DNA of 64,000 nucleotides from an uncultured Pseudomonadales bacterium (lineage in GTDB: Bacteria > Pseudomonadota > Gammaproteobacteria > Pseudomonadales > Cellvibrionaceae). The position numbers were made by a program, and so were the translations under genes. Below, in pieces: positions 26,664-44,093 of the stretch. Positions within the stretch are counted from its first letter, which is position 1; each line of letters opens with the position of its first letter. The DNA lies in assembly GCA_947487765.1 (NCBI GenBank), contig CANKXO010000007.1:22180-86179 (forward strand), written 5' to 3'. Under the pieces are notes generated by a model. The model was not told where the DNA came from. It did not search any database and worked only from the letters and a program-made list of their open reading frames with translations.

Positions 26664-26740
26664 ACGTCGATAGCTTAACTGGCAAAAGCTCTGGCCTCCA
26701 AAACCAGGCGATGTAGGTTCGAACCCTACTCGGCGTGCCA
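26664..26740 (+). tRNA. tRNA-Trp (CCA)
   Basis: acceptor acgtcga/tcggcgt (one G-U), D-stem gctt/aagc, anticodon loop ctCCAaa (stem has a C-A mismatch), T-arm gtagg-ttcgaac-cctac, discriminator G + encoded CCA. Confidence 0.75.
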
Positions 26741-26749
26741 AACATAAAT

Positions 26750-26909
26750 GCAGTGATAGCCCCAATAGATCGGCAGATTTTTGTTTCATTGAAGATCAGG
26801 AGAGTGCTGGTTCGACAGCTTTGTAGGAGCAAAAGTTGGACGCTTGTATAGGCGGTCGAGAAGCGATTATGCACAAGGATGTGTATAACAATTCCGGCTC
26901 ACTGCACCA
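26750..26909 (+). ncRNA. Long tRNA-like RNA L2. Acceptor-like 7/7 pairing + discriminator + CCA encloses about 145 nt, including a degenerate T-arm-like hairpin and an internal module paralogous to the one in L5
   Basis: gcagtga (26750-56) pairs with tcactgc (26899-905), followed by a-cca; internal gctg-gttcga-cagc; the block tttgtaggagcaaaagttggacgc...ggcggtcgagaagcgattatgcacaagga aligns with the L5 insert. Confidence 0.5.
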
Positions 26910-26916
26910 GTTTTAT

Positions 26917-26993
26917 TTCGGTGTGAAGCAGAGTGGTAATGCGCCTGACTGTTAATCAGGAGTTCGTTGGTTCGACCCTAGCCGCCGGAGCCA
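26917..26993 (+). tRNA. tRNA-Asn (GTT)-like (non-canonical D-arm)
   Basis: anticodon arm cctga-ctGTTaa-tcagg, T-arm gttgg-ttcgacc-ctagc, acceptor ttcggtg/cgccgga (G-U pairs), G + CCA. Confidence 0.55.
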
Positions 26994-27001
26994 ATTTTAT
27001 T

Positions 27002-27083
27002 GAGGGTGTTGAGCAGGTGGTGAGCTCAGCGGACTGTAAATTCGCCGGAAACTATGTAGGTTCGATTCCTTCCACCCTCACCA
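27002..27083 (+). tRNA. tRNA-Tyr (GTA)
   Basis: acceptor gagggtg/caccctc 7/7, D-stem gagc/gctc, anticodon gcgga-ctGTAaa-ttcgc, 10-nt variable region, T-loop ttcgatt, A + CCA. Confidence 0.8.
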
Positions 27084-27090
27084 AATTTCC

Positions 27091-27168
27091 GGGCCAATAG
27101 CATAATCGGTAAATGCCCCGGCCTCATAAGCCGGAGAAGGAGCGGTTCGAATCCGCCTTGGCCTACCA
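27091..27168 (+). tRNA. tRNA-Met/Ile2 (CAT)
   Basis: acceptor gggccaa/ttggcct, D gcat/atgc, anticodon ccggc-ctCATaa-gccgg, T-loop ttcgaat, A + CCA. Confidence 0.75.
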
Positions 27169-27186
27169 ATTAAATGATTAGTTAAT

Positions 27187-27261
27187 AGCGGTGTTGAGCA
27201 ATGGCTGCTTTCGGGTTTCATATGCCCGAGCTTGTTGGTTCGATTCCAACCACCGCAACCA
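27187..27261 (+). tRNA. tRNA-Met (CAT), second copy
   Basis: anticodon cgggt-ttCATat-gcccg, perfect T-arm gttgg-ttcgatt-ccaac, acceptor 6/7 (A-A at 1:72), A + CCA. Confidence 0.7.
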
Positions 27262-27265
27262 AATT

Positions 27266-27356
27266 GGAAGTGTGGCCGAGTGGTAAGGCAGCGGATTGCT
27301 AATCCGTACAGTGATAAATCGTTGCTGCATGAGTTCGAATCTCATCACTTCCTCCA
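27266..27356 (+). tRNA. tRNA-Ser (GCT), long variable arm
   Basis: ggaagtg...ggccgagtggtaaggc, anticodon gcgga-ttGCTaa-tccgt, long variable arm, T-arm atgag-ttcgaat-ctcat, acceptor 7/7, T + CCA; 91 nt. Confidence 0.9.
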
Positions 27357-27382
27357 AAATACTCCGGTGATGCAATTGGAAG

Positions 27383-27486
27383 GCAGGTTAAGGCTCCTGC
27401 AAAACCTGCATTCCCACCATCCATGGTGGTCACATAGCCCACTTAAAATCGGTTTGTTGCGAGTTCGACTCTCGCCGTCTGCATCA
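27383..27486 (+). ncRNA. Long tRNA-like RNA L4. Acceptor-like 6/7 pairing, a Cys-type T-arm (gcgag-ttcgact-ctcgc), a GCA-containing loop and a covarying internal hairpin; no encoded CCA. A degenerate paralogue lies at 26189-26310
   Basis: gcaggtt (27383-89) vs cgtctgc (27476-82); cctgcaaaacc loop; ccacc-atccat-ggtgg hairpin corresponds to acgcc-atccat-ggcg in the 26196-26251 copy (compensatory changes). Confidence 0.45.
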
Positions 27487-27574
27487 GTTTTTCGTGAGGT
27501 AATTCAATTAGCAGAATGCGATTTTCATAAAATCGGCGATAGTGGTGCAAGTCCACTCTTCACGACCGGTTAAT

Positions 27575-27648
27575 AGCAGCGTGGTGTAACGGTAACACAC
27601 CGGACTTTGACTTCGGTATTTCAGGTTCGAATCCTGGCGCTGTTGCCA
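27575..27648 (+). tRNA. tRNA-Gln (TTG)
   Basis: acceptor agcagcg/cgctgtt, D gtgt/acac, anticodon ccgga-ctTTGac-ttcgg, T-loop ttcgaat, G + CCA. Confidence 0.75.
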
Positions 27649-27688
27649 AATAGTATGTTGAGTAGGGTTCTAAAAATATTTAATTTTT

Positions 27689-27763
27689 GTGCGAGTGGCA
27701 GAATGATGATGCGCGGAACTGCAACTTCCGTTTACGCCGGTTTGATTCCGGCCTCGCACTCCA
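27689..27763 (+). tRNA. tRNA-Cys (GCA)
   Basis: acceptor gtgcgag/ctcgcac 7/7, anticodon cggaa-ctGCAac-ttccg, T-arm gccgg-tttgatt-ccggc, T + CCA; 3-bp D-stem as in E. coli tRNA-Cys. Confidence 0.8.
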
Positions 27764-27769
27764 AATTTT

Positions 27770-27914
27770 CTGGATATAGCACAGCCTAGTAGCGTGTTGG
27801 GTTTAACTAAAATACATCCAAGTATTTTGCCCTTCGGGTTCTTCGAAGTTCAAAACGTTCCAGACGTTTTGTGGAGCTCAAAGTTTGTGGGTTCAAACCC
27901 TGCTATCCAGACCA
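27770..27914 (+). ncRNA. Long tRNA-like RNA L3. Canonical acceptor (7/7), D-arm and T-arm + A + CCA, with an approximately 85-nt structured insert replacing the anticodon region
   Basis: ctggata/tatccag; D gcac/gtgt; T-arm gtggg-ttcaaac-cctgc; the insert contains a cc-ttcg-gg tetraloop hairpin and aaaacgt-tccag-acgtttt hairpin. Confidence 0.55.
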
Positions 27915-27926
27915 ATTAATTTAAAC

Positions 27927-28000
27927 GCGGTGTTGACCGAATGGTTAGGTACCTGCCTTCCAAGCAGAGGAAATGGGTTCGATTCCCATACACCGCTCCA
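27927..28000 (+). tRNA. tRNA-Gly (TCC)
   Basis: acceptor gcggtgt/acaccgc 7/7, anticodon loop ctTCCaa (4-5 bp stem), T-arm atggg-ttcgatt-cccat, T + CCA. Confidence 0.75.
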
Positions 28001-28008
28001 AAATTTAA

Positions 28009-28082
28009 TGAAGGTTGGCTTAGTGGCTGAGCACCGGACTTTTAATCCGGCTAGATGGGTTCGATCCCCATACCTTCAACCA
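28009..28082 (+). tRNA. tRNA-Lys (TTT)
   Basis: acceptor tgaaggt/accttca 7/7, D gctt/gagc, anticodon ccgga-ctTTTaa-tccgg, T-arm atggg-ttcgatc-cccat, A + CCA. Confidence 0.85.
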
Positions 28083-28116
28083 ATTACAATAAAACAACTA
28101 AAAGGAGATCGTATTA

Positions 28117-29312
28117 TGGCGATTAAAAAAGTATTGGCGCCGCATAAAGATCAGCGGTTGCCTGTAAAAATTTGGACGGATGATATTGATTACAGCACGC
28201 AGGCTCAGTTGAGTCGTGTAGCGAACTTACCATTCGTTTATAAGCATGTAGCAGCGATGCCTGATGTACATCTCGGAAAAGGCGCCACTGTTGGTTCAGT
28301 GATTGCAACCGATAAAGCTATTATCCCTGCAGCTGTGGGTGTGGATATTGGATGTGGAATGAATGCAGTGAGATTATCTATTAAAGCAAAAGATTTGCCT
28401 GATAGCCTAAAATTGATTCGAAACGGAATTGAATCAGTTGTACCTTTAGGTCCCGGAGGTCAACATCGTGACCCCAAAATTGCTGGTGGTCATGATATAT
28501 CAATGCGTCTATGTACTATTTTTGAAAAACACCCGAAGTTAAGTAAGCGCGTTAAAGTGAATGGGTTTGCGAAACAATTAGGAACGCTGGGCTCAGGAAA
28601 TCATTTCATTGAATTATGTTTAGATGAAAATGATGACGTGTGGATTATGTTGCATTCAGGGAGTCGTGGAGTTGGCAATAAAATCGGTATGTACTTTATC
28701 GAAATTGCTAAACGAGAAATGGAAAAATGGATGATTCACTTACCTGATAAAGACTTGGCTTATCTATCTGAAGGGTCAGAATATTATGATGACTATATTG
28801 AAGCAGTTTCTTGGGGGCAAGATTATGCGGCATTGAATCGCACGCATATGATGAATGCAGTAATGCTAGAACTACGTAAGTATTTACCTGCGTTTACAAT
28901 CACACAAGAGGCTATCAATTGCCACCATAATTATGTTGAAAAGGAAAATCATTACGGCAAAAACGTATGGGTAACGCGTAAAGGCGCAATCCGTGCGAGA
29001 AAGGATGATCTTGGTATTATTCCCGGGTCCATGGGTGATAAAAGTTTTATTGTTCGTGGTAAAGGTGAATCTGAATCATTTTGTTCTTGTTCCCATGGTG
29101 CGGGTCGACGATTGAGTCGTACTGCAGCTGCAAAAACTTTTTCCGTTGCTGATCTCGTATCAGCTACTGAAGGAATAGAATGTCGTAAAGACAGGGGTGT
29201 CATTGATGAAATTCCAATGGCATATAAGCCTATCGATAGCGTGATGGATAACCAAACTGATCTAGTGGATATAGTTCATACACTTCGACAAGTCGTCAAT
29301 GTAAAAGGCTAG
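28117..29312 (+). CDS. rtcB: RNA ligase RtcB (3'-phosphate/5'-OH RNA-splicing ligase family)
   Basis: AMPDVHLGKGATVGSV, GCGMN, GSGNHFIEL, HSGSRGVG, CSCSHGAGR; RBS aaggag 9 nt upstream of the ATG at 28117. The tracked ORF from 27885 is an artefactual extension across two tRNAs. Confidence 0.9.
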
Positions 29313-29358
29313 AAAGGACTTAGCCTTTTCTTTCACCTCTTTCCTCATTTTTAATTTA

Positions 29359-29432
29359 GCCCAATTGGCATAGTGGTCGTGCAGCTGCTTTGTAAGCAGC
29401 AGAGACAGGTTCAATTCCTGTATTGGGCTCCA
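29359..29432 (+). tRNA. tRNA-Thr (TGT)
   Basis: acceptor gcccaat/attgggc 7/7, D gcat/gtgc, anticodon gctgc-ttTGTaa-gcagc, T-arm acagg-ttcaatt-cctgt, T + CCA. Confidence 0.85.
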
Positions 29433-29441
29433 GTTTACATC

Positions 29442-29593
29442 GCCTGATTAGTTCAATTGGACTTAGAGCATCCGCCTACGACAATTTTGCAGGAGCAAAA
29501 ATTGGGCGTCTATAGAGGCGATCGTGAAACGATAATGTGCAGGACGCATATTACAAACGGGAAGATGCGGGTTCGAATCCTATTCAGGTGCCA
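29442..29593 (+). ncRNA. Long tRNA-like RNA L5. Acceptor 6/7 + G + CCA, canonical D-arm, T-arm-like gcggg-ttcgaat, and an approximately 95-nt insert paralogous to the L2 insert
   Basis: gcctgat vs ttcaggt; D gttc/gagc; insert aattttgc-agga-gcaaaaatt hairpin, atcgt-gaa-acgat hairpin; aligns with L2 (tttgYaggagcaaaaRttggRcg...ggcgRtcgNgaaRcgatWatg). Confidence 0.5.
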
Positions 29594-29601
29594 AATTTAT
29601 T

Positions 29602-29678
29602 ACTCTCGTAGCTTAATTGGATAGAGCGTCTGTCTTCGAAACAGAACGGTGTTGGTTTGATTCCAACCGAGAGTGCCA
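29602..29678 (+). tRNA. tRNA-Arg (TCG)
   Basis: acceptor actctcg/cgagagt 7/7, D gctt/gagc, anticodon tctgt-ctTCGaa-acaga, T-arm gttgg-tttgatt-ccaac, G + CCA. Confidence 0.85.
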
Positions 29679-29917
29679 ATAATTATTATTAATAAACCCG
29701 AGAATCTTTAGGTGTGGCCGTGGCAGATTGATAAATTTACCGGGAGTAAATTTAGACGCGGGAGAGAAGCGACGGCGCCCGTAGGGGTTGTAACATGGAT
29801 GTTACAAACCAATGTGCGCTTAACTTTGGCTTAAGTGCCCTTGGTTTTTGGAAAGGGGAGTTCAGGTCGCATCGGTCACCCCTAAAGGTTTTTACTAATA
29901 GAAAAGGAGGTCAAGCA

Positions 29918-30211
29918 ATGAGACTTGCTATAACGCGATCAGGTTTTTATAACGCTGATCTTTATTGCGCTGATACTCGTACAGCTAAAAGAGTGTTGCG
30001 TGAAAAAAATATTTCCATATTGGCTATCGACTATTATCTAGTTGGCCAGGGAAATGGTTGCGATATTATTGATTGGGCTAAAAGAAATGCAGTTTTGCCT
30101 AATTTTATCGTTGTTATTGAACGTAATCGCAACAAACGAGCCTTATTATCGAATACATTACGAAATATAGGTTATCGCTCTGGTGATGATACTACCTTTA
30201 TAAGGCATTAA
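29918..30211 (+). CDS. Hypothetical small protein (97 aa), alternating beta/alpha pattern (receiver/Rossmann-like?)
   Basis: RBS aaaggagg 7 nt before ATG 29918; MRLAITRSGFYNADLY...ISILAIDYYL...NFIVVIERN; the longer tracked ORF from 29795 lacks an RBS. Confidence 0.5.
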   Translation: MRLAITRSGFYNADLYCADTRTAKRVLREKNISILAIDYYLVGQGNGCDIIDWAKRNAVLPNFIVVIERNRNKRALLSNTLRNIGYRSGDDTTFIRH

Positions 30212-30250
30212 ATTTAGTTAAAGCGACCACTATGATTAATTGAGAATAGG

Positions 30251-30814
30251 ATGATGAATATTCAAATTTTGCAGCTATCGAAGTCAGGTCACCCAATGTC
30301 TTGGGTGAACCGTGAAGAAGCCGCAACACTGTATGCAAAAAATAGGGTGTTATGGGAGCTGGGTGACGAAGTTATTCCAATTGTCGGCGGTATTAATCGC
30401 TTGGGCATTCAAAGTCGCTTCGATATGGCACCAATTATTGCTTGTGATGGTGATGTGAAACAACCTCGTTTACGACCATCGTTAAGTAATCGTATGCTGT
30501 TTCGCCGAGACGATTACCGATGCTTGTATTGTGGTGTTCAGTTTAATCACGACGGATTAACGCGGGACCATATTGTGCCGCGTATTCAAGGTGGTTTAGA
30601 TCGTTGGGAAAATGTGGTTGCTGCTTGTAAACGCTGTAATCACAGTAAGGGTGGTCGAACGCCAGAGCAGGCAGGGATCAAGCTATTGGCCATTCCATTT
30701 GTGCCGAATCCGTTTGAGTTTCTGTTTTTGGCAAATCGACATATTCTGGCTGACCAGATGGATTATCTTGCGACAAGCTTTTCGTCAAAGCGAGACTGGA
30801 AAAAAGTGGCTTAA
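30251..30814 (+). CDS. HNH endonuclease-domain protein
   Basis: CLYCG...DHIVPRIQGG...WENVVAACKRCNHSKGG (HNH with zinc-ribbon cysteines). Confidence 0.8.
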   Translation: MMNIQILQLSKSGHPMSWVNREEAATLYAKNRVLWELGDEVIPIVGGINRLGIQSRFDMAPIIACDGDVKQPRLRPSLSNRMLFRRDDYRCLYCGVQFNHDGLTRDHIVPRIQGGLDRWENVVAACKRCNHSKGGRTPEQAGIKLLAIPFVPNPFEFLFLANRHILADQMDYLATSFSSKRDWKKVA

Positions 30815-30834
30815 CTATTAAGCCACCCACATAT

Positions 30835-30862
30835 TTGGAATACAGGTATTAACCTGTATTCC
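30835..30862 (+). terminator. Strong hairpin after the HNH gene (11-bp stem, weak U-tract)
   Basis: ggaatacaggt-atta-acctgtattcc. Confidence 0.5.
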
Positions 30863-30991
30863 ATACCGATGTTTATACGTATGTTGGCGAAACAGCGGCT
30901 CTGGTTCTGAATGCCAGGCTGGCACAGTCATGTTTTATGTCCTGTGTACCGATTCACTAACACGTTAAACAGTATGCTCTGAAAAAGCATA

Positions 30992-31064
30992 GTTTTTGTA
31001 GCTCATAGGGTAGAGCAATCGACTCATAATCGATGGGTAGCAGGTTCGATTCCTGCCTCAAACA
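30992..31064 (+). tRNA. Degenerate tRNA-Met (CAT)-like gene (weak acceptor 5/7, no CCA)
   Basis: D gctc/gagc, anticodon atcga-ctCATaa-tcgat, perfect T-arm gcagg-ttcgatt-cctgc. Confidence 0.4.
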
Positions 31065-31084
31065 CAGTCAGTTTTAATAAACTG

Positions 31085-31424: not shown

Positions 31425-32576
31425 ATGATTCTTTGGAAAACAATCGATATTGCGGAACATGAACGTGTATTACTTTATGTCCGTGATCAATTTAAACAAG
31501 TGCTAGGCCCAGGTCGGCATCGTGTCTCGACCTTGAAGGGAAAAGTTCGCCAGGAAACCTATGATATTACCGAAGTAGTATTCAGGCATCCTAAAGAAAA
31601 ATTTTTGCTGTCACACTACCCAGAAAAACTGGCAATGCACCTTGAGCAGTTTGACTTAAAAGATACTGAAGTGGGCTTGTTATATCGAAATGGCCATTTA
31701 ATGAATGTGTTGGCACCTGGTAGTTTATTTACAGTTTGGAAAGGTGTTGAGGATATTCGTGTTGACGTTATCGATATTAATAACCACTATCAGATAGAAG
31801 AGTCTTTAATTGGCTTATTGGGGCGAGGCATTAAAATTGGTCAAAGCCGAGAAGTCGTTAATGCGATTGCTTATGCAGAGGTAGTTGATGAGCATGTAGG
31901 TTTATTGCTGGTTAACGGTAAGCTAGAAAAGATCTTGCAACCGGGTAGTTACGGCTTCTGGAAATATAACCGTTCAATTGCGGTTAAAATGCTTGATCTT
32001 CGTTTACAAGCAATGGAGGTTAGTGGCCAAGAGATTCTGACCAAAGATCGCGTGAGTTTGCGTATTAACTTAACTGGTAGTTATAAAATTAAAGATCCTC
32101 AAATTGTTGCCTCTAAGGTGAATGATTACGCAGGTTTTATCTATCGTGAGTTGCAATTAAGTTTGCGAGAAATTGTAGGCACACAATCATTAGATGGATT
32201 GTTAGAAGATAAAGATGCTTTAAATTCTGTAATTACTCAGAGTACACGAGAAAAATTAGCGGAATACGGTATTCAGTTAATGAGTGTCGGGGTTAAAGAT
32301 ATTATTTTACCTGGTGAAATGAAGCAGATTCTGAATCGAGTAGTAGAGGCGCAAAAAGAGGCTGAAGCTAATTTGATTAAGCGTCGTGAGGAAACTCAGG
32401 CAATGCGTTCATTACATAATGCTGCCAAGATGATGGAAAACAACCCTGTGTTGTTACGTTTAAAGGAATTAGAAGCATTAGAAAGAGTGACTGGGAAAAT
32501 CGATAAGATTTCTGTCTATGGTGGCCTTGATAGTGTTCTTAATGACTTGGTAAAACTGGCGCCGGTCAAAACCTAA
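31425..32576 (+). CDS. SPFH/band-7 domain protein (cytoplasmic, duplicated N-terminal beta-domain)
   Basis: SPFH core TKDRVSLRINLTGSYKIKDPQIVASKV...QLMSVGVKDIILPGEMKQILNRVVEAQKEAEANLIKRREETQAM; no N-terminal TM. Confidence 0.7.
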   Translation: MILWKTIDIAEHERVLLYVRDQFKQVLGPGRHRVSTLKGKVRQETYDITEVVFRHPKEKFLLSHYPEKLAMHLEQFDLKDTEVGLLYRNGHLMNVLAPGSLFTVWKGVEDIRVDVIDINNHYQIEESLIGLLGRGIKIGQSREVVNAIAYAEVVDEHVGLLLVNGKLEKILQPGSYGFWKYNRSIAVKMLDLRLQAMEVSGQEILTKDRVSLRINLTGSYKIKDPQIVASKVNDYAGFIYRELQLSLREIVGTQSLDGLLEDKDALNSVITQSTREKLAEYGIQLMSVGVKDIILPGEMKQILNRVVEAQKEAEANLIKRREETQAMRSLHNAAKMMENNPVLLRLKELEALERVTGKIDKISVYGGLDSVLNDLVKLAPVKT

Positions 32577-32749: not shown

Positions 32750-34531
32750 CTAGCGAAAAGATACAATCAAAAATATAAGTACAGCAATTGCCGCAAAAAT
32801 CATTACGCGAGCGAAGGGTTGCATAGAATCTGTATTAGATGCATCCGATAGCCATGGTGATTGAGATTCTTTCTGTTGTTGTGACTTAGTTTCTTCCTTT
32901 TTTGTTTGTTTTTTTGCGGTCGCTATTTGTTTAAGCTCTTCTGTAGTATTCTCTTTAACAGGTGGTGCTGGTGGCTCAGCTTGCCACCAGTTTTCGCGTG
33001 GTGCTTCACCGGCAGCGGCCTTTAAGCGTAAAAGTTTATTATTTAATTTGCCAATGCGACTTGGATTAACTTGATAACTGTATTTTTGTTTTAGTTGTAC
33101 TATTTGCTTTTGTAAAGGAATGCCCTTGCTAGGGTTAACCATTGCGACAAAGTTGGCGTAACCTTCTATGGAGCACAATAAATTGCTACTGCTATTGTGA
33201 GAACGATGAGCCCAGTGCTTACCCTCTAGCCCGCTTTTGTCAATTTGATGTAGTAAGGCTCTGAAGCGCTTTAAGGTCTTGCGATCAACGCTAAGGTTAT
33301 TATTCACTACCACGCCGGTCACTTCTTGTTTTTTATGCTTGCGCATAATGCGTGTTTTTTCGGGGTGAACAATAAAACCTTCATCCTTAATAATACTATG
33401 ACAACGCCACAATAGTTTTTTTACAATGCTGTCGTCAATATTCTGTGGATTAATATCATCGCCCTTGTTGGAGCTTGCCGAAAAAGTAACATCGTCAGCA
33501 TATCGCGTATAAGTAAAGCCTAATTTTTTAGCCATCCCTTGTAAGCGAGCATCCAATTTTCTACAGATGATATTGCTAATATTAGGGCTAGTTGGCGCTC
33601 CTTGCGGTAAAAAGCGCTCTCCGTTACTAACAAACCAAGACTGACTATCTAGTTCAACCTCCTGTGTATTCGCTTCGGTGCAAAGTAAGGCTAGTACTGT
33701 TGCAATGTGTTCACTGTAACCTAGAGCTTTAAACATCCCCTTAACTCTTGGATAGCTAATTGTTGGAAAGAAGTTTTTAAGGTCGAGGTTAATAACAATA
33801 TCTTTGCCTACATGAGGCGCAGCATTGGTTACGATAGAGCGCGTGCGTACAAAGCCATGAGCGGCATCATGTAATGCCAGCGGCTCTAAAATATTGGATA
33901 AAACCCAATACTGGGCAAGTTTCAACCGTGGCATAGGGGCAGATATTAGGCGAGTTCCACCGGTTTTCTTGGTCATTTGGAAGCGTTGATAATGACTAAT
34001 CGTGCAGACATCTTTTTGGTAGACTAAAAAACGTAGCTCATTAACGGTAATGCCCATGGCTCTGGCCAACATTTGGCTGTCGTGCAGTAGTGGTAACTGT
34101 TGGGCTTGGAGTTTGTCTTCATCGCTGTTAACTTTTGATAGCCCTATCGATAAACCTTCCCCTACGAAGGTAATAAATTTCTTTTGGATGTCGTACCAAT
34201 TCTTTGCTCGTTGGTATCGTGTTTCATTGCGTTCTTTACGCTTTTCTTCTCTACGAATAAGTGCTTCTTTTTTACGCTGTTTGTGTAACTCCTTTAGTGC
34301 TTGCTCTGGGTCTTGATACAATTGCTGTTGCTTTCCTAATTCACGCAGTTGCTTTTGTAACTGCCCGCGCTTTTCAATAAAGGTTTCTGTTAGTGTTGGC
34401 TGTTCACTATTTTTTGGCCAAAACCCAAGACGTTTCATCTCTGCTAAAATATAAACTTCTTTACCACCTGTTTCGCGTACGCGCTGGTAGAGTTCTTGGC
34501 GGCTTAATTTTTTAGTGCTTTCGTCAGACAT
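32750..34531 (-). CDS. Retron-type reverse transcriptase with a long N-terminal extension and a C-terminal transmembrane anchor
   Basis: RLISAPMPRLKLAQYWVL, NAAPH (NAxxH), NLDLKNFFPTI, QGAPTSP, YADD, VTGVVV (VTG); collinear with Ec86 RT; C-terminus MIFAAIAVLIFLIVSF is hydrophobic after a Lys/Gln-rich low-complexity linker. Confidence 0.85.
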   Translation of the reverse strand: MSDESTKKLSRQELYQRVRETGGKEVYILAEMKRLGFWPKNSEQPTLTETFIEKRGQLQKQLRELGKQQQLYQDPEQALKELHKQRKKEALIRREEKRKERNETRYQRAKNWYDIQKKFITFVGEGLSIGLSKVNSDEDKLQAQQLPLLHDSQMLARAMGITVNELRFLVYQKDVCTISHYQRFQMTKKTGGTRLISAPMPRLKLAQYWVLSNILEPLALHDAAHGFVRTRSIVTNAAPHVGKDIVINLDLKNFFPTISYPRVKGMFKALGYSEHIATVLALLCTEANTQEVELDSQSWFVSNGERFLPQGAPTSPNISNIICRKLDARLQGMAKKLGFTYTRYADDVTFSASSNKGDDINPQNIDDSIVKKLLWRCHSIIKDEGFIVHPEKTRIMRKHKKQEVTGVVVNNNLSVDRKTLKRFRALLHQIDKSGLEGKHWAHRSHNSSSNLLCSIEGYANFVAMVNPSKGIPLQKQIVQLKQKYSYQVNPSRIGKLNNKLLRLKAAAGEAPRENWWQAEPPAPPVKENTTEELKQIATAKKQTKKEETKSQQQKESQSPWLSDASNTDSMQPFARVMIFAAIAVLIFLIVSFR

Positions 34532-34638
34532 CTGCCTGTCTCCCTAATATAAATAAGGATAAATGTTGAGTGTTAAAAAAATGGATAATGATAGTTGTTA
34601 CAAGAACAAATAAAGAAGAGAAGTGCGCAAGATAAAAG

Positions 34639-34868
34639 GGTGCCAGCGTGCTCAATGTTTCCTTCGTAGAGCTCTTAGTACTGGATTGATCAACTCGACG
34701 CGGCACGCCCCTACTATCGCTCATTGACTTCATGGAAGTCATACCGCAATAGCGATAGTAGGGGCTGTGCCGCCCTATGAAGATCAGGCCAGTGACGCGT
34801 GTGTAGTCTATAAACCAGAACGGCGATGCACCGCTCAAATTGCAAGGTAGATAAGTCACGCTGACACC
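34639..34868 (-). ncRNA. Retron msr-msd non-coding RNA (a1/a2 inverted repeats flanking a long msd hairpin)
   Basis: a1 ggtgtcagcgtg (minus strand, plus coords 34857-34868) pairs with a2 cacgctggcacc (34639-34650) over 12-14 bp; about 72-nt near-perfect palindrome at 34701-34772 (cggcacgcccctactatcgct...agcgatagtaggggctgtgccg with inner gacttc-atg-gaagtc). Confidence 0.7.
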
Positions 34869-34931
34869 TGTGCTAGTATAGCAGTGTTGTTAGGTTTTAA
34901 AAGAGCGCTATTAAAATTCTTCATGATCTCT

Positions 34932-36572
34932 TTAACCGTTTGCTAAGGAATATTGTTTTCTGATCGCTAATATATGTTCGCATGGCCCCATGCGCAGTAA
35001 ATTCGTTCGATAAAAATAACAGTCGCAGCTAGCCTCTTTTAAACGTTGATCGCCGTCAATTTTAATCTCAGTGTTCAAATGGTGTCCGTCATCAATGACT
35101 GTTCCTTGAATTTGAGCACCTCTTTCATTTTCTAGCTTATGATGAATTGTCACCAAGTTGGCGGCCACAAATCGAGCAGACTTTTCATCGCGCTCATTAG
35201 CAAAACGCAATGAGTCCATCGGTAAAGGTTGTTGGCTAAGTTCACGGATACGATAAACACTTCCGGCTAAATCATAAAGCACTTGCCCCTGTTGGCTATA
35301 GGCAGCCAATGCAGATTTCACTACTGACTCATCTAAATGCAGTCGTCGTGCCAGTGAGTCACTGGATTCTTGCCATGTCTCTGATAGTGCTTGGTAAACA
35401 CGTTTAAGTGTTACTTCGTCAACATCACCTCTAGGCGCTAATAGATCAAAGTTACCCATTCGTGACCAATCATTTGCTGACCAGCCCGACAAACCTAAGG
35501 TAAATGTCATATCGCCTAAATCGGCAACGTAAAAACTAGGTAAGCCATTACCTAATAGATGTACCGTAAATTTTTTGGCGATAGGGATTAAACGCTCCAA
35601 TATATGCAGGCGACGGCGCCCCCATATACGAATTGATCTAGCGTCATTTCCTGTATAAATGCTTCTGGCTAATATTAATTCTGTGCCCCATGGCTCTAAG
35701 ATAATTTTAATAGGCTCATCTGATGCCAGTTCAAATCGTATTGCCCGAGGGCCTACGCGCTCTCTTTTACGCCGCAACATATAACAAATATTGTGAATAT
35801 CCATTGGGTGCAATGTTAATGTGGTCATGGGTAAGGTCATAGCTGAGCTTACCTGTAAAAAACCACGCACCCAGCTTTCAGGAAGATCAATTTTCTTTTC
35901 GTCAAATTGTTCCTCATGGCTGGTTTGCATACTGAAACCATCGGGGTCAATTGCCAATGCTGTTTGGCGATACTCTCTTATTTTTTGAAATTCGTTGTAT
36001 AAACCTTCCGAGTAATCAATATTTGTGGTGCCGTAAGAAGTATCGGTTATATTATCAAATACGTCATAGCTACAGCTAAGTTTTCCGTAACTTGATTCAT
36101 CTTCAGAAAAACATTCAAAAAAAACTTCGTCGGGATGGACGGTAATTACTGGGTCAAGTACATACCAAGCATCCATATCGGTTTTATAAAGATGTTTGAA
36201 ATATTTGTTCTGAGCTGTATAAAAAGGCCCCATTAATGCTTGGCTTTGCTTGCTAAGTTCAGATAGTTCTTTGCGCACAAGCTCAATTTCGCCTTCCACC
36301 TGTGACTTGCGACCAATAAATTCTGCCAATAGCCGCTCTTCTTCTTCAGCTAGCCAGCGCTCGTATTCGCTGCGATCTTTTGGCTGAAAGCGCATATCAG
36401 AAATCACAACATTGTGTAGTGCCGATATCGCCTCACGAAAAGCTATTTTCTGCTTAAGCTGTCCTACAAAATAAGTAGGTAGGCGCAAACTGTCAGGCAC
36501 AAAAGATACATCTGTACTCGCTGCATTGCTCGCAACATGGCTCTGCCCATGATATCGATAACGAAATTCCAT
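34932..36572 (-). CDS. SWIM zinc-finger protein (retron accessory / putative effector)
   Basis: C-terminal CxCx(n)CxH: EASCDCYFYRTNLLRMGPCEHILAI; 546 aa. Confidence 0.7.
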   Translation of the reverse strand: MEFRYRYHGQSHVASNAASTDVSFVPDSLRLPTYFVGQLKQKIAFREAISALHNVVISDMRFQPKDRSEYERWLAEEEERLLAEFIGRKSQVEGEIELVRKELSELSKQSQALMGPFYTAQNKYFKHLYKTDMDAWYVLDPVITVHPDEVFFECFSEDESSYGKLSCSYDVFDNITDTSYGTTNIDYSEGLYNEFQKIREYRQTALAIDPDGFSMQTSHEEQFDEKKIDLPESWVRGFLQVSSAMTLPMTTLTLHPMDIHNICYMLRRKRERVGPRAIRFELASDEPIKIILEPWGTELILARSIYTGNDARSIRIWGRRRLHILERLIPIAKKFTVHLLGNGLPSFYVADLGDMTFTLGLSGWSANDWSRMGNFDLLAPRGDVDEVTLKRVYQALSETWQESSDSLARRLHLDESVVKSALAAYSQQGQVLYDLAGSVYRIRELSQQPLPMDSLRFANERDEKSARFVAANLVTIHHKLENERGAQIQGTVIDDGHHLNTEIKIDGDQRLKEASCDCYFYRTNLLRMGPCEHILAIRKQYSLANG

Positions 36573-36643: not shown

Positions 36644-39600
36644 TTAAACACCCAGCGATGCAGGTTGTTTAATGGGTACCTTTTTGGCTGTTAAGGGTGA
36701 TGCTATATCTGGATACAATGATTGTAATTTAAGCATAGCTTTTATCAAAGCGGCTTTATCTTTATGTACCATAGTTAACGAAATTCGTTCCAATAAAGGC
36801 ATTACCATAGTGGCAACACTTATATCTTTTTCTGCTTCTCTTAATAAAAACAGTAGAATCCTATCTTTACAAACGCGACCCTTATTAATTTGTGATAACG
36901 CTGTTGTAAAATAAGCTTGTAATGAAAGTATATGGCTAGGAATACCCGCCGCGTATTCTTCTAAAAAACTGCTGACAAAAAGCTGTACATTATTTGACGG
37001 ATGCTGGCTTAACTTAAGCAAGTATTCTGGGCCATACTCAGCTTTAAAAAAAGATTGTAGTATTTCGCGTCCAAAGCTTTGTACGTCATCTCTGATGCTG
37101 TCGCAAATAAAAATAACAATTTCAGGGCTCCAATCTTCTTGGCTGTATTGTTGTCGAAAAAAATCAAAGCCAAAGGTTCTTGCATCGTCCCAGTTGCTAT
37201 TTAGAATTCGAAGAGCATCACGACTGTATTGTTTAATTTCATCTACATTTTTCTCGTAAGCCTGAAATGCAAACTGCCTGACAGATACATCGCTATGCTG
37301 GCCTAATATTGCCCATTGTTTGACTGAAAATATATCTGCATTACGTTCAGTTAAGGTTATGGCGCCCACTCGTTGAGCACAGATAGATTGTGCCTGTAAT
37401 AAGCGCCATAGCATATCATTGTCTAGTTTCGTTAAATGTGATTGTGCCAATGAAGTAAAAAAGGCAATTAATTCTTCATGTTGCCCAGGCTGCTCTTCAG
37501 ACTTAAATGTCAGCGCTAATAATGTATTTTCAATCTGCTCGGATCCCTGTTGAGAGTTGGTCATTAGGCGGGAAAAAATAGAAAGTAGGGAGGCGCGCTC
37601 TTGAGTATCGCCCTTGCAATACAAGCCGACTAATAAGTCTAATTGTTTGATTAAGTCTTTATCGGCTTGTTTGCCTAGTAATGCAGCACCTATCCCTCTA
37701 ACTTCGGCTGAGGATGAATCATGAATTGCCTGTAATAAGCTGTCGGGAATATCTCCATAAGATATTTTGTGTCCAAGCAATAATTTTGCACCTAATATTT
37801 TTCTGGGTACTTTCTCGTCATGAATTAAACGTTGCAAACTAGTAAGAGGGAAGTGTTTAATTGCATCATTTAGGTTCTCAAGTGCAAAATCGGCCAAATA
37901 CTCTGCATGCTTTTCGCTTAAGTTGCTGTTCTCTAAAAAGATAGAATCAACTATAGCTTGCAATAGTTTCTCAGCATTTCTACCAGAAATCTTTTGCTGG
38001 CAAACAGCCGTTTTAATGTCACTTTGTACATCACTATGAAGAATCAATAGTAGTGATGTTAATAGTGAAATATCATCATTAATTTTGAACCTTAGTAAAG
38101 ATTGCTTACCTAATACTCTAGCCTCAGTCAGCGAGCTACTTAGTAGAGCGATTAATAATTCACTACTTAAATCGTCTTGTTTAATGCGTTCGCGAACAAT
38201 TGCTAGTGCAAATTCACAAGTACTCGCATAGTTGCTGTTCAGTAAAAGAGCTAAATCTACAGGGCTGATTTTCTGGCAAAAACTCGGTTGATTTTCTAAT
38301 ATCCGACGAGCGAAAGGATGAACCAGCTCGCATCGACTTGTTTTTAATAAGCGTAGTGCATGGCTAGGCTTTTGATCCCAAAGTTCAGCAAAGCATTCGG
38401 TACGAGATCCATTTATCAAGGAAGTACCGTCGGTATTCGACTCATCACTTTTTATCCAGACGCGGCCACTAGGTGCAAGTTGATACCCTGGATGATGTTC
38501 GAAGAGGATATGATTTAAGCTTAAGAAGCTGGCAAAAGGGCCATATTCATTGCTGGATATCAACTGGCGTTGCCAATTGTCGCCACTATTATCCCAGCGA
38601 TAAACCTCTGATGTTCGAGGCTTGCTACCATGCTCATCATTAATCGCAAGCAATGATTCTGTTGCCATATCAACATAACGGAGATCACCGGCCTGTCCTA
38701 TACGCCTGAGTACTCGCCAGCTACGACGGCGAAAGTAATCTCGTGTACGATGCGAGAAGGTCAATTTTGCATTGGCCTTTTTCAGTTCTTTAGATGGTTT
38801 AATACTGCCTTCACCGGGAAGCCATGCCCAATCCCAATCATTACGAAAAAATGCGGGTGCTGTTTCTATACGCTGCGCTAATAAGCCAAATACAGACCCG
38901 TCAAGACGTAGCTCGGATGCTTTATAAATTGATCTAATGCCCCGAAAATATCCTGGGGTTAGGGGAATAATAGCCAGTTGACTTAATAATGCTTGATGCA
39001 ATATGGGGTAAGCTAGCGATAGCTGATAACAAAGTACCAATAGCTGATTAGTATTGTTAACGTTGTCACTAGCCCCATGACTGAGCAACGCGCCAAGTTG
39101 CTGATGAGCAGTGCTACTATTTCCTTCCATAACAGCAGATTTAAACTGTGCAGGAAAGTGCTGCCAATGGCTGCCTAACAAGGCTTTGCGCGATGTTTGG
39201 TCGCTGATTAATAGTTGCGATTCAAAGGCTATATGACAAACTTGTGCTTGTTTGTGTTGCCTCAAGGTTTCTAAAACCGCCTTGTGTTGCGTGGCAACCA
39301 TCCGCCCCAAGGCCCAAGCAATAGAGTAATCCTCTAACCAATGGCCTTTCTTAATATAGGGCACAATTGCATTGGCAATAGGTTCACAATCTCGGTGCCC
39401 TAATTCCCCGAGTCGCCATATCATGCGGCTGCGAGATTTAGTCTCTTTTTCATTGGGTAAATGATTGAGTATCTGTTCAATTAGTTTAAAAGGAAAGTCA
39501 TCGGAGGCAAGATTGCTAGAAGGGACGCCTGCAAGTGTAGGCGAGGTAGTAGTAGGGGACTGTTTTGCTTGTTCTCTATCCCAATAGCCTTTATTGACTT

Positions 39601-39820
39601 TGGATACAACAACACTATCAAATAGCTTCTCTGCTTTGCTAAGCTCAACAGCTTCAGGGGTTTTAGTGCCTTCTCTTAATTGATTGCCGCGACGCCCGTA
39701 TCGAAAATTAACGAGATAACGTTCATCTTTTCGGCTTGCTAACTCACATAAATCAACTTCATAAACTTTGTCGGAATTGCCTTCCTGATACACCAATCGA
39801 GATTGCTTGATTAGTCGCAT
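36644..39820 (-). CDS. Large WGR-like + alpha-helical repeat protein (MolR/DUF4132-like), retron accessory
   Basis: N-terminal KVYEVDL...YLVNFRYGRRGNQLREGTKT resembles a WGR domain; the remaining roughly 950 aa are Leu-rich helical repeats. Confidence 0.55.
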   Translation of the reverse strand: MRLIKQSRLVYQEGNSDKVYEVDLCELASRKDERYLVNFRYGRRGNQLREGTKTPEAVELSKAEKLFDSVVVSKVNKGYWDREQAKQSPTTTSPTLAGVPSSNLASDDFPFKLIEQILNHLPNEKETKSRSRMIWRLGELGHRDCEPIANAIVPYIKKGHWLEDYSIAWALGRMVATQHKAVLETLRQHKQAQVCHIAFESQLLISDQTSRKALLGSHWQHFPAQFKSAVMEGNSSTAHQQLGALLSHGASDNVNNTNQLLVLCYQLSLAYPILHQALLSQLAIIPLTPGYFRGIRSIYKASELRLDGSVFGLLAQRIETAPAFFRNDWDWAWLPGEGSIKPSKELKKANAKLTFSHRTRDYFRRRSWRVLRRIGQAGDLRYVDMATESLLAINDEHGSKPRTSEVYRWDNSGDNWQRQLISSNEYGPFASFLSLNHILFEHHPGYQLAPSGRVWIKSDESNTDGTSLINGSRTECFAELWDQKPSHALRLLKTSRCELVHPFARRILENQPSFCQKISPVDLALLLNSNYASTCEFALAIVRERIKQDDLSSELLIALLSSSLTEARVLGKQSLLRFKINDDISLLTSLLLILHSDVQSDIKTAVCQQKISGRNAEKLLQAIVDSIFLENSNLSEKHAEYLADFALENLNDAIKHFPLTSLQRLIHDEKVPRKILGAKLLLGHKISYGDIPDSLLQAIHDSSSAEVRGIGAALLGKQADKDLIKQLDLLVGLYCKGDTQERASLLSIFSRLMTNSQQGSEQIENTLLALTFKSEEQPGQHEELIAFFTSLAQSHLTKLDNDMLWRLLQAQSICAQRVGAITLTERNADIFSVKQWAILGQHSDVSVRQFAFQAYEKNVDEIKQYSRDALRILNSNWDDARTFGFDFFRQQYSQEDWSPEIVIFICDSIRDDVQSFGREILQSFFKAEYGPEYLLKLSQHPSNNVQLFVSSFLEEYAAGIPSHILSLQAYFTTALSQINKGRVCKDRILLFLLREAEKDISVATMVMPLLERISLTMVHKDKAALIKAMLKLQSLYPDIASPLTAKKVPIKQPASLGV

Positions 39821-40200: not shown

Positions 40201-41460
40201 ATGCAATTAAATAATAAAAAAGTTTACTTAGTTGGCGGAGCTGTCCGTGACGAACTATTGAATCGCCCAGTTTCAGATCGAGACTGGGTGGTGATTGGTG
40301 TGACTCCAGAAATGTTGATTAAGCAAGGCTATCGGCAAATCGGTAGTGACTTTCCTTGCTTTTTGCATCCTGAAACCAAAGATGAATATGCACTGGCACG
40401 TACGGAGAAAAAATCAGGAAGCGGCCATACAGGGTTTGTGTGTGATTTTAGTCCTGAGGTAACTCTCGAAGAAGATTTATCTCGGCGCGACCTCACCATC
40501 AATGCCATTGCTAAAACAGTAGAGGGTGAATATGTTGATCCTTATGGAGGCAGAGAAGATTTAGAGAATCGAATATTGCGCCATGTATCAGATGCATTTG
40601 CTGAAGACCCATTGCGTGTGTTACGCGTTGCTCGTTTTGCCGCTCGCTACGCAGAGTTAGGTTTTACGGTACACCCAAGTACATTAGCCTTAATGGCTCA
40701 GTTAGTCAGTTCTGGTGAACTATCAGAATTAACACCAGAGCGAGTCTGGAAAGAAATGTCTCGTGCATTAACAGAGCCTCGTCCTAGTGAGTTCTTTCGT
40801 GTGCTTCGTGCCTGTGGTGCTTTGTCGGTACTATTACCCGAAGTAGATTGCTTATTCGGTGTTCCTCAGCCACCCCAACATCATCCTGAAATTGATACCG
40901 GCGATCATGTAATGATGGTGGTTGATATCGCTAAAGAGCGCTTTGATTCTATTAATATCACTTGGGCTGCCTTAATGCATGATTTAGGAAAAGGGCTGAC
41001 GCCTGAAGAGGAGTGGCCCAAGCATATCCGTCATGAAATTAAAGGTGTGCCATTAGTTGAGGCTGTTTGCGAGCGTTATAAAGTTCCGCGTGATTTTAAA
41101 ACATTAGCAATGTTAGTTTCTGAGCACCATTTGCGTTGCCATAAATTATTAGAGATGAGACCAAAATCCATTATGCGCTTATTAGAAGCGCTGGATGCTT
41201 TTAGGCGGCCAGAGAGGGTTAAATATTTTGCGCAAGCCTGCGAAGCCGACGCCAGAGGTCGCTTAGGTTTAGAAGATAGAGATTACCCACAATCGTCACT
41301 ATTAATAAAATGCGGTGAAGTGGGGAAGGATATAGATATTAAGCCTTTACTGGATGAAGGCTACCAAGGCTTGAAGCTGGCGGAACAGATTCGCCGTTTA
41401 CGACTAGGGGCGATTAAGAGGTTTATGGCAAATTATCGAAAAGAAATATTAGGGAAATAA
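40201..41460 (+). CDS. cca: CCA-adding tRNA nucleotidyltransferase with HD domain
   Basis: LVGGAVRDELLNRPVSDRDWVV, TERKSGSGHTGF, RRDLTINAIA, LRVLRVARFAARY, HHPEIDTGDH, collinear with E. coli Cca. Confidence 0.9.
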   Translation: MQLNNKKVYLVGGAVRDELLNRPVSDRDWVVIGVTPEMLIKQGYRQIGSDFPCFLHPETKDEYALARTEKKSGSGHTGFVCDFSPEVTLEEDLSRRDLTINAIAKTVEGEYVDPYGGREDLENRILRHVSDAFAEDPLRVLRVARFAARYAELGFTVHPSTLALMAQLVSSGELSELTPERVWKEMSRALTEPRPSEFFRVLRACGALSVLLPEVDCLFGVPQPPQHHPEIDTGDHVMMVVDIAKERFDSINITWAALMHDLGKGLTPEEEWPKHIRHEIKGVPLVEAVCERYKVPRDFKTLAMLVSEHHLRCHKLLEMRPKSIMRLLEALDAFRRPERVKYFAQACEADARGRLGLEDRDYPQSSLLIKCGEVGKDIDIKPLLDEGYQGLKLAEQIRRLRLGAIKRFMANYRKEILGK

Positions 41461-41464
41461 TAAG

Positions 41465-42367
41465 ATGAGCAGTAAAACTCAGCATTTAATTAAACAAGGT
41501 TTACTCAAGTCTCCGCCTAAGTTTTTGGAAACCGGGGTACAGTATGAAGTGGTTATGGGCTCTATTGCCTATGGTGTTGCTGAAGATCACTCTGATATGG
41601 ATATTTATGGTTTTGCCATTCCACCACGAGACTGGGTATTTCCTCACTTAAGAGGAGAAATTTCAGGTTTTGATGAATCTGGCCCTCAATTTGAGCAAGT
41701 GCAGCAACATCATATGTTGGATAAGTCTGCACGTGGAGGTAAAGGCAAGGAGTATGATTTGGTCATCTATTCGATTATTAAATACTTTCGCTTACTGATG
41801 GATAATAACCCTAATATTATTGATTCTTTATTTGTGCCGCGCAATTGTGTGCTTTATAGCACTGCTGTTGGTGAGATGGTCCGCGAAAACCGTCATCTAT
41901 TCTTGCATAAAGGTTGTTGGGCAAAGTTCAAAGGTTATGCTTATTCACAAGTACATAAAATGCGAACAAAGGTTCCAGAAGGTGGCCGTCAAGCGATCAT
42001 TGATGAATATGGTTATGATGTAAAATTTGCCTATCATGTTGTTCGGTTACTGAATGAAGTCGAGCAAATATTAATTGAAAAAGACCTTGATTTGGCACGA
42101 AATAAAGAGCAATTAAAATCGATACGCCGTGGCGAATGGACACAGCAAGCCATTGAAGAATATTTTACTAATAAAGAAAAACAACTTGAGCAAACTTATC
42201 TGGACAGTGCCTTGCCTGCGTTACCGGATAAAGCAGCTATTAAAAAGTTATTGTTGGAATGCTTGGAGCATCATTACGGCTCATTATCTGAATGTATTGT
42301 TCAGGAAGATGAGGCTTTGATCGCTATTCGAGAAATTGAAACGATAGTGCAACGCTTGAAAAAGTAA
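41465..42367 (+). CDS. Pol-beta superfamily nucleotidyltransferase (predicted RNA-repair NTase)
   Basis: GS-x10-D-x-D motif MGSIAYGVAEDHSDMDIYGF; start is 4 nt after the cca stop (likely co-transcribed). Confidence 0.6.
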   Translation: MSSKTQHLIKQGLLKSPPKFLETGVQYEVVMGSIAYGVAEDHSDMDIYGFAIPPRDWVFPHLRGEISGFDESGPQFEQVQQHHMLDKSARGGKGKEYDLVIYSIIKYFRLLMDNNPNIIDSLFVPRNCVLYSTAVGEMVRENRHLFLHKGCWAKFKGYAYSQVHKMRTKVPEGGRQAIIDEYGYDVKFAYHVVRLLNEVEQILIEKDLDLARNKEQLKSIRRGEWTQQAIEEYFTNKEKQLEQTYLDSALPALPDKAAIKKLLLECLEHHYGSLSECIVQEDEALIAIREIETIVQRLKK

Positions 42368-42864
42368 GCCTTTATTTTTTAATTGAACCACTTTGTATTT
42401 GTTAACCTATAAAAATACTCATTAATATAGTTGTAGTTAATTTTTGTAAGGAAATGTTATAAAAATTATGAATAAAGATATTGATATATAATTTTAATAT
42501 GACTATAGTGCGCGCAGTTTTTACAAATCACCTTTAATCAATACTCTACAGGAGGCTCAAGTATGTTGTATCTAAATAATCAAATCGCATTGTTGGGTTT
42601 GTCTGTATCTTGTTCTTATAGCTAACATTTTTGTTAACGCTATAGCTATCTTTCAGATAAATCCTCTTAGCTAAACGTCTTAACTGTACGTTATAGGTAG
42701 TTTTGCGTAATTTTTTAAGCTAATTCTTGTTGGTCAAATTCTATCGACCATACATTTGCATTTTTTTATGCGGTTAGCGATTAATCTGTATCGCCTTTTG
42801 TTTCAACTCGAAAATATTTTTTGAGGGGGCAATGTCGTGCCTAAAAACATGAGTAGAAATTTTA

Positions 42865-44091: not shown

Positions 44092-44093
44092 AT

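Follow-up and report, generated by a model that had tools for sequence, protein, structure and literature searches.

On the minus strand of the window (the whole 64,000-nt stretch of DNA that was analyzed), we found three consecutive protein genes, encoding a 1058-aa WGR plus HEAT/ARM-repeat accessory protein (positions 36644 to 39820), a 546-aa SWIM zinc-finger accessory protein (34932 to 36572), and a 593-aa retron reverse transcriptase (RT; 32750 to 34531), with a gap of 400 nt between the SWIM and RT open reading frames and a Shine-Dalgarno-like AGGGAG (34545 to 34540) ahead of the RT. Each product matched a type XIII profile in PADLOC (WGR_XIII, E = 0; SWIM_XIII, 1.3e-232; RT_XIII, 8.8e-188), and the remaining top PADLOC matches of the RT were all retron RT profiles. 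The RT also matched Pfam RVT_1 (3.7e-24), while in the WGR/HEAT protein the Pfam WGR domain passed its cut-off (23.1 bits versus 22) and HEAT_2 fell below its own (23.4 versus 27.7). The NAxxH, YxDD, and VTG motifs of the retron RT clade are present as NAAPH, YADD, and VTG, which are invariant across 25 homologues (N236, A237, H240, Y344-D347, and V404-G406 in alignment A1). The C terminus of the SWIM protein reads CDC-x12-CEH, matching the CxCx12CxH motif that defines the type XIII SWIM accessory protein (Mestre et al. 2020), and together with the WGR/HEAT-ARM protein it makes up the accessory pair of that type. Among the proteins found, and leaving aside its own database entry, the window RT was at best 70% identical to another protein (P0002).

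Type XIII includes the earliest discovered retrons, Mx162 among others. In the classification of Mestre et al. (2020), it corresponds to RT clade 10 and contains Mx162, Mx65, Sa163, and Ne144, and Table 1 of that work gives an RNA structure family for it (Firmicutes/Mx162/Mx65/Ne144). A recent preprint (10.64898/2026.04.27.721009) counts type XIII among the retron types without an identified msr-msd; this is contradicted by that table and by the RT-DNA sequenced from homologous RNAs in a retron census (see below). Our literature searches for functional work on type XIII accessory proteins found none. The RT C terminus (32750 to 32900) has a Lys/Gln-rich stretch followed by a hydrophobic segment, FARVMIFAAIAVLIFLIVSF, which from its sequence looks like a candidate membrane anchor; the final ~60 columns of the RT alignment are weakly conserved.

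The retron lies within an apparent RNA-repair island (26664 to 31065 and 40201 to 44789). One flank contains 14 tRNA genes within ~4.4 kb, together with genes for an RtcB ligase (27885 to 29312), an HNH endonuclease (30251 to 30814), and an SPFH/Band-7 protein (31425 to 32576). Because the listed TTG start of this RtcB overlaps two tRNA genes, translation probably begins further downstream. The other flank carries genes for a CCA-adding enzyme (40201 to 41460), RlaP (41465 to 42367), a second RtcB (42865 to 44091), and a PrfH-like RF-1 domain protein (44094 to 44789).

In the gap between the SWIM and RT genes, an earlier note made from the sequence alone had proposed an a1-msr-msd-a2 unit on the RT-coding strand, in which an inverted repeat brackets about 200 nt and an inner palindrome with a nested hairpin. 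These elements are present. The 5' arm, a1 (GGTGTCAGCGTG / GGUGUCAGCGUG; 34857 to 34868), pairs with the 3' arm, a2 (CACGCTGGCACC / CACGCUGGCACC; 34639 to 34650), over 12 bp including one G-U, with 206 nt between the arms and 107 nt from the end of a2 to the RT ATG (34531), the distance given in the note. The palindrome (34700 to 34773) forms a ~30-bp msd hairpin that consists of a perfect 15-bp core (34765-34751 / 34721-34707), a 7-bp extension (34773-34767 / 34706-34700), and an apical 7-bp hairpin, UGACUUC/GAAGUCA (34741 to 34725). Between a1 and the msd lies an 8-bp msr hairpin, GAGCGGUG-CAU-CGCCGUUC (34818 to 34836). Covariation supports the msd hairpin as well as the msr hairpin. In the folding check that the note had suggested, the 271-nt region reached -110 kcal/mol (z = -6.2), an energy equaled by none of 200 shuffled sequences. 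Searches of Rfam at gathering and permissive thresholds returned tRNAs and chance miRNA-like hairpin matches only, with no family for this RNA; the missing Rfam family does not count against it.

We looked for relatives with an RT-alignment profile scan, keeping one genome per species, and obtained 80 loci with RTs that are 45 to 61% identical; an earlier genome scan with the single RT protein as the query had found no relatives, and the homologue alignment was required. These loci span six phyla (Gamma-, Beta-, and Alphaproteobacteria, Bacteroidota, Verrucomicrobia, Myxococcota, Desulfobacterota, and Chloroflexi). In most of the 80 loci, an nhmmer search with the window RNA gave a match immediately 5' of the RT and in the same orientation, with E values down to 1e-35; three closer relatives matched at 1e-40 to 1e-44. 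An alignment of 75 sequences contains several near-invariant elements, CCTTGCA, the GGTGGATCGCC hairpin, CGCGTCACTGG, CTCTTCACTG, and TCGAGTTGA...CCAGTCC...CGAAGG, while the inner msd stem varies through compensatory change. In the Thiodiazotropha ncRNA (L027:4641-4920), a 19-nt tandem duplication of CCCGCGTCGAGTTGAGCGG in the msd 3' arm appears as an insertion in the alignment.

The 45-pair structure derived from this alignment was paired in 89% of cells, compared to 34 to 45% when the partners were slid by 1 to 3 columns, and its covariation score was 0.51, compared to 0.08 to 0.14 for slid partners and 0.17 for shuffles. Changes on both sides were seen in 38 of the 45 pairs. Compensatory changes were found in all 13 pairs of the main msd helix, in all 5 pairs of the apical hairpin, and in 5 of the 8 pairs of the msr hairpin, for which 99.7% of cells are paired; by analogy with other retrons, this conserved msr hairpin is probably the RT recognition element. 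The a1/a2 arms were missed by MAFFT plus RNAalifold because they vary in sequence and length. When each sequence was searched separately with one mismatch allowed, nearly all 75 homologues proved to have a1/a2 stems, mostly of 9 to 22 bp. The a1 strings were of 60 different kinds; the sequence of the arms changes among lineages while their complementarity is kept. The longest perfect stem had a median length of 13 bp, compared to 7 bp in shuffles; perfect stems of at least 9 bp were present in 96% of the 75 homologues (17% of shuffles), and those of at least 12 bp were present in 69% (0.8% of shuffles).

Five retrons labeled 'Terminal' in a census of RT-DNA production in Escherichia coli (1718, 1687, 1703, 1710, and 1673; Khan et al., PMC10849725, Supplementary Data 1) share this RNA architecture. 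Their RNAs are 76% (1718) or 50 to 60% (1687, 1703, 1710, and 1673) identical to that of the window and have in common with it CCTTGCA, the GGTGGATCGCC hairpin, CGCGTCACTGG, and TCGAGTTGA...CGAAGG, whereas their a1/a2 arms and inner msd stems are unlike those of the window in sequence. RT-DNAs of 139 to 151 nt were sequenced for 1673, 1687, 1703, and 1710, the RT-DNA of Mestre-1673 keeps its 2'-5' branch, and RT clade 10 was among the top RT-DNA producers (PMC10849725). The census assays used an inverted, synthetic gene order and omitted the accessory genes (PMC10849725), and they are therefore uninformative on native transcription or function. Thus, the window RNA is homologous in sequence both to RNAs located 5' of clade-10-like RTs and to census ncRNAs, and the a1-msr-msd-a2 layout put forward in the earlier note is borne out by the flanking type XIII proteins and by the RT-DNA obtained from homologous RNAs (PMC10849725). 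We assign a probability of about 0.9 to the reading that a type XIII retron with the order WGR/HEAT, SWIM, ncRNA, RT has its msr-msd RNA gene at positions 34868 to 34639 of the minus strand.

The alignment and the census RT-DNAs also allowed us to predict the priming site and the ends of the msDNA. The earlier note had suggested looking for a conserved branching G after a1. A conserved G is present, at position 34843, though not directly after a1; it sits 14 nt 3' of a1, beyond a second helix. This G belongs to the CTTGC (CCUUGCA) element and is invariant in 75 of 75 sequences, and we infer that it is the branch point. Next to it, CCUU (34844 to 34847) pairs with AAGG (34664 to 34661) in the minimum-energy fold, and one pair of this helix, 59:275 in the alignment, is C-G in 41 sequences and U-A in 27. 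The helix places G34843 opposite G34665, which with the AAGG strand (34661 to 34665) is part of the conserved CGAAGG motif. The RT-DNAs of 1687, 1703, and 1710 start with the complement of the C in a conserved (A/T)C|GA(A/T/C)G motif (PMC10849725), and G34665 lies one base 3' of the corresponding template base, so the invariant G34843 facing G34665 agrees with the RT-DNA 5' ends of three homologues. For 1673, a one-base difference at the 5' end of the printed RT-DNA keeps the start from being placed exactly. The RT-DNAs of 1673, 1687, 1703, and 1710 all terminate ~11 nt 5' of CGCGTCACTGG, with an AU-rich stretch lying immediately 5' of the end point.

Transferring by homology the ends of 1687 (142 nt), 1703 (151 nt), and 1710 (139 nt), with which the 3' end of 1673 (139 nt) is consistent, gives a predicted msd of 34666 to 34807, with C34666 as the first templated base and approximately A34807 as the last. 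The predicted msDNA would be 142 nt long, would equal the plus strand from 34666 to 34807, and would begin with GTAGAGCTC; as DNA, it is predicted to fold at -38 kcal/mol (z = -7.1). An msDNA of 70 to 80 nt, as the earlier note had it, does not agree with these ends, from which the palindrome emerges as the central hairpin only of a product of ~142 nt, about double the length given in the note.

The note had also drawn attention to the position of the ncRNA between the accessory genes and the RT instead of at the 5' end of the operon. The position is as it described, but it is the norm of the family and therefore not unusual, since the order WGR, SWIM, ncRNA, RT is shared by 66 of the 80 loci with one copy of the RNA and by 2 more loci with two copies. 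Five further loci have the same gene order and an RNA match under the cut-off used. The sole locus with the ncRNA and RT ahead of the accessory genes (ncRNA-RT-WGR-SWIM) is that of a Cocleimonas metagenome-assembled genome (L069), which shows that the ncRNA-RT cassette can change its place with respect to the accessory genes as one unit. Two tandem ncRNA copies 5' of one RT were observed at L080:7444-7898, L060:2953-3397, L071:254-681, and L064:7385-7814, in hosts from the Anaerolineales, Verrucomicrobiales, Saprospiraceae, and Bacteroidota. The tandem copies differ from each other in their inner msd stems and a1/a2 arms, and a single RT may therefore produce two distinct msDNAs.

Just upstream of a1 in the window there is an extended -10 promoter-like element, TGcTATACT (34875 to 34883). 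The last T of its -10 box is 6 nt upstream of a1, which places the predicted transcription start at ~34868. Of 69 homologues, 45 have a TAnnnT box that ends 3 to 12 nt upstream of a1, compared to 23% in shuffles, and in 22 of these 45 the TG extension is present. A consensus promoter scan of the region did not call the -10 box because it requires a -35 element, which is absent here. The recurrence of the TAnnnT box upstream of a1 argues that the RNA gene probably has its own promoter inside the operon.

Taken together, these features suggest the following pathway. A transcript starting at approximately a1 from the extended -10 promoter would carry the ncRNA and the RT gene. In the folded RNA, for which covariation provides support, a1 would pair with a2, the CCUU/AAGG helix would set G34843 opposite G34665, and the conserved 8-bp hairpin and the long hairpin would form the msr and the msd, respectively. 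By homology to the sequenced RT-DNAs, the RT would then prime at the 2'-OH of G34843, copy the template from C34666 back to approximately A34807, and halt just 3' of the AU-rich stretch, so that the product would be a branched msDNA of ~142 nt. This msDNA presumably works with the SWIM and WGR/HEAT proteins, and a role in phage defense may be proposed by analogy with other retron types.

During this analysis, we also found that a stop-free reading frame crosses the whole ncRNA of the window (34524 to 34859, minus strand; open from 34889). It comprises 111 codons from a GTG at 34859, and its TGA overlaps the RT start (ATGTCTGA). Upstream of it is a short leader ORF of 22 codons (34856 to 34924) with an ATG at 34924, 7 nt after the SWIM stop codon (TAA, 34934 to 34932), and a TGA at 34858 to 34856 that overlaps the GTG at 34859 (GTGA). 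The window thus contains a chain in which the leader ORF is joined through GTGA to the ORF at 34859 to 34524 and the latter through ATGTCTGA to the RT. Only the RT-side overlap is canonical, and the chain is split into ORFs of 22 and 111 codons, whereas in relatives the start codon corresponding to that of the leader ORF opens one continuous bridging ORF. The split may reflect a one-base frameshift or sequencing error in 34889 to 34858, a two-step relay, or a decayed frame.

Among the 75 homologous RNAs, one fixed frame is stop-free over ~261 nt in 46, including all those from Gammaproteobacteria, while the other two frames have 2 to 9 stops in Gammaproteobacteria and 1 to 9 stops in most homologues and are stop-free in just 3 and 4 sequences, all of them GC rich. 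The frame also stays open through the unconserved, length-variable spacer to the RT start, where it ends in ATGA at 19 loci, in ATGNNTGA/TAA at 17, and at +8 in 2. Codon 2 of the RT is variable (TCT, CGT, TTT, or GCT) but always has T as its last base and is followed by GA or AA, which points to selection for a stop codon. On the SWIM side, an ATG or GTG in the bridging frame is usually found one base before the SWIM TGA (ATGA or GTGA), and between the SWIM stop and the conserved CTTGC lie 36 to 243 nt, a number that is usually divisible by three. One open frame bridges the SWIM stop and the RT start in 53 of 77 loci, 48 of which have a start codon -4 to +15 nt from the SWIM stop. At loci with an intergenic GC content below 0.55, the frame bridges 21 of 36, compared to ~1% in per-locus shuffles; it is these shuffles, the spacer multiples of three, and the stop/start overlaps that support the open frame, as the column-shuffle null ignores relatedness.

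All three closest relatives with DNA available carry the bridging frame, which is uninterrupted in Hahella sp. HN01 (L082) and was annotated by a gene caller in L083. The frame is absent from the Bacteroidota loci, Undibacterium, and most Variovorax; two Variovorax loci were scored as bridged, without a nearby start codon. Substitutions within the frame show no codon periodicity, with column entropies of 0.98, 1.00, and 0.97 at codon positions 1 to 3. The encoded peptide had no NCBIfam match and no homologue among 5.8 billion proteins. Thus, from these sequences, the frame appears to be kept open while its peptide is unconserved.

We considered whether the palindrome or the open frame could be explained without a retron RNA. 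The palindrome is a very stable hairpin 160 to 230 nt downstream of the SWIM stop codon and could in that respect act as an intrinsic transcription terminator of the SWIM gene, the outcome that the earlier note had named as its refutation. However, an intrinsic terminator is a GC-rich hairpin with an immediate U-run, and no U-run follows the palindrome, whose 3' flank is GUCGAGUUGAUCAAUCC. A terminator scan left the palindrome uncalled and called only the small msr hairpin (34836 to 34818), which is conserved with covariation in the msr. The palindrome is also embedded in a 230-nt unit that has the covarying a1/a2 arms at its ends and a conserved -10 box ahead of it, and the same region is reverse transcribed in homologues (PMC10849725). 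In addition, the frame that runs open across the palindrome to the RT start, as it does in 53 of 77 loci, argues for read-through. On these grounds, we rejected a SWIM terminator as highly improbable.

An ordinary gene for a small protein, of 111 aa in the window and up to ~180 aa in relatives, with the RNA structure incidental, would account for the single stop-free frame in 46 of 75 homologues beside two frames with 1 to 9 stops in most, for start and stop codons that overlap the neighboring genes, and for the gene-caller annotation in L083. A conserved coding gene is recognized by codon-position bias and protein homologues, though, and here the third-position bias is absent, the peptide lacks any match in the databases given above, and the variation tracks base-pair covariation instead of codons; homologues of this RNA have, moreover, been demonstrated as RT templates (PMC10849725). 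We consider this explanation very unlikely, if somewhat less so than a terminator. In DRT2 systems, the template is a stop-free ncRNA. Rolling-circle reverse transcription of such a template would yield a concatemeric cDNA encoding a new gene, and the stop-free frame carried by the window ncRNA would suit that scheme. Yet the window RT scores as a retron RT (RT_XIII) and has retron motifs, the RT-DNAs of homologues are single units of 139 to 151 nt with defined ends, and the open frame does not end at a2 but extends as far as the RT start codon, as would be expected if the mRNA, and not a concatemer, were translated. Of the three alternatives, a DRT2-like template is to our minds the least probable.

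Within the retron reading, the bridging frame is most simply explained if translation through it has to remain possible whatever peptide results, which would amount to serial translational coupling from the SWIM gene through the bridging ORF to the RT on an operon-length mRNA. On such an mRNA, ribosomes would translate through the RNA gene and unfold the msr-msd, which would either couple RT synthesis to SWIM synthesis or shield the ~400-nt gap from polarity. A short transcript from the internal -10 promoter would not contain the bridging start codon and would therefore be free to fold, so that it could be the one that is reverse transcribed. We see roughly even odds that, in the type XIII retrons of Proteobacteria and at one Verrucomicrobia locus, a selectively maintained stop-free frame crosses the msr-msd in this way and gives one DNA sequence two transcript fates.

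Compared to known systems, the window locus shares with the type XIII retrons Retron-Mxa1/Mx162, Mxa2/Mx65, Sau1/Sa163, and Nex2/Ne144 (Mestre et al. 2020) the RT profile family, both accessory proteins (SWIM, with CxCx12CxH, and WGR plus HEAT/ARM), and an msr-msd immediately 5' of the RT. A Nannocystaceae locus (L077) has a homologous RNA in common with the window. In contrast to the myxobacterial members of the type, the window comes from a lower-GC host, and its nearest RT relatives are in Gammaproteobacteria. Kinship with Mx162 and Ne144 themselves is drawn from protein profiles and accessory genes.

In Retron-Eco1 (Ec86), the priming G is directly after a1, following UUA, and the msDNA is 86 nt long. 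The window shares with it the a1/a2 arms, a priming G that faces a G, the msr hairpin(s), the msd hairpin, and an RT with NAxxH and VTG. It differs in that a1 and the G are separated by an internal loop and another helix of 4 bp (CCUU-G), in its predicted msDNA of ~142 nt, in N- and C-terminal RT extensions totaling ~250 aa, and in its effectors. As in translationally coupled ORFs, the bridging frame in most loci begins on the SWIM stop (ATGA/GTGA) and ends on the RT start (ATGA or ATGNNTGA/TAA), whereas the intermediate ORF here has no conserved product and coincides with a structured ncRNA that is a reverse-transcription template. A literature search for retrons combined with translational coupling found no paper, and the literature searched held no description of a coupling ORF that coincides with a reverse-transcription template RNA.

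The kind of element found here is already known, the type XIII retron ncRNA family, to which we add a member with more precise predicted positions for its priming G and msDNA; of the whole finding, only the bridging frame may be new. The value of the analysis is mainly one of annotation: for a previously unannotated type XIII retron, it locates the RNA gene and gives a probable priming G and a probable msDNA of 142 nt. The clade 10 relatives are among the better RT-DNA producers in the census, and the coordinates should therefore be usable for expression tests or for retron-based editing. If true, the bridging frame would reconcile a structured template RNA in the middle of an operon with translation of the RT downstream of it, and it would offer a switch, open to testing, by which one sequence is used either as "mRNA" or as "template."
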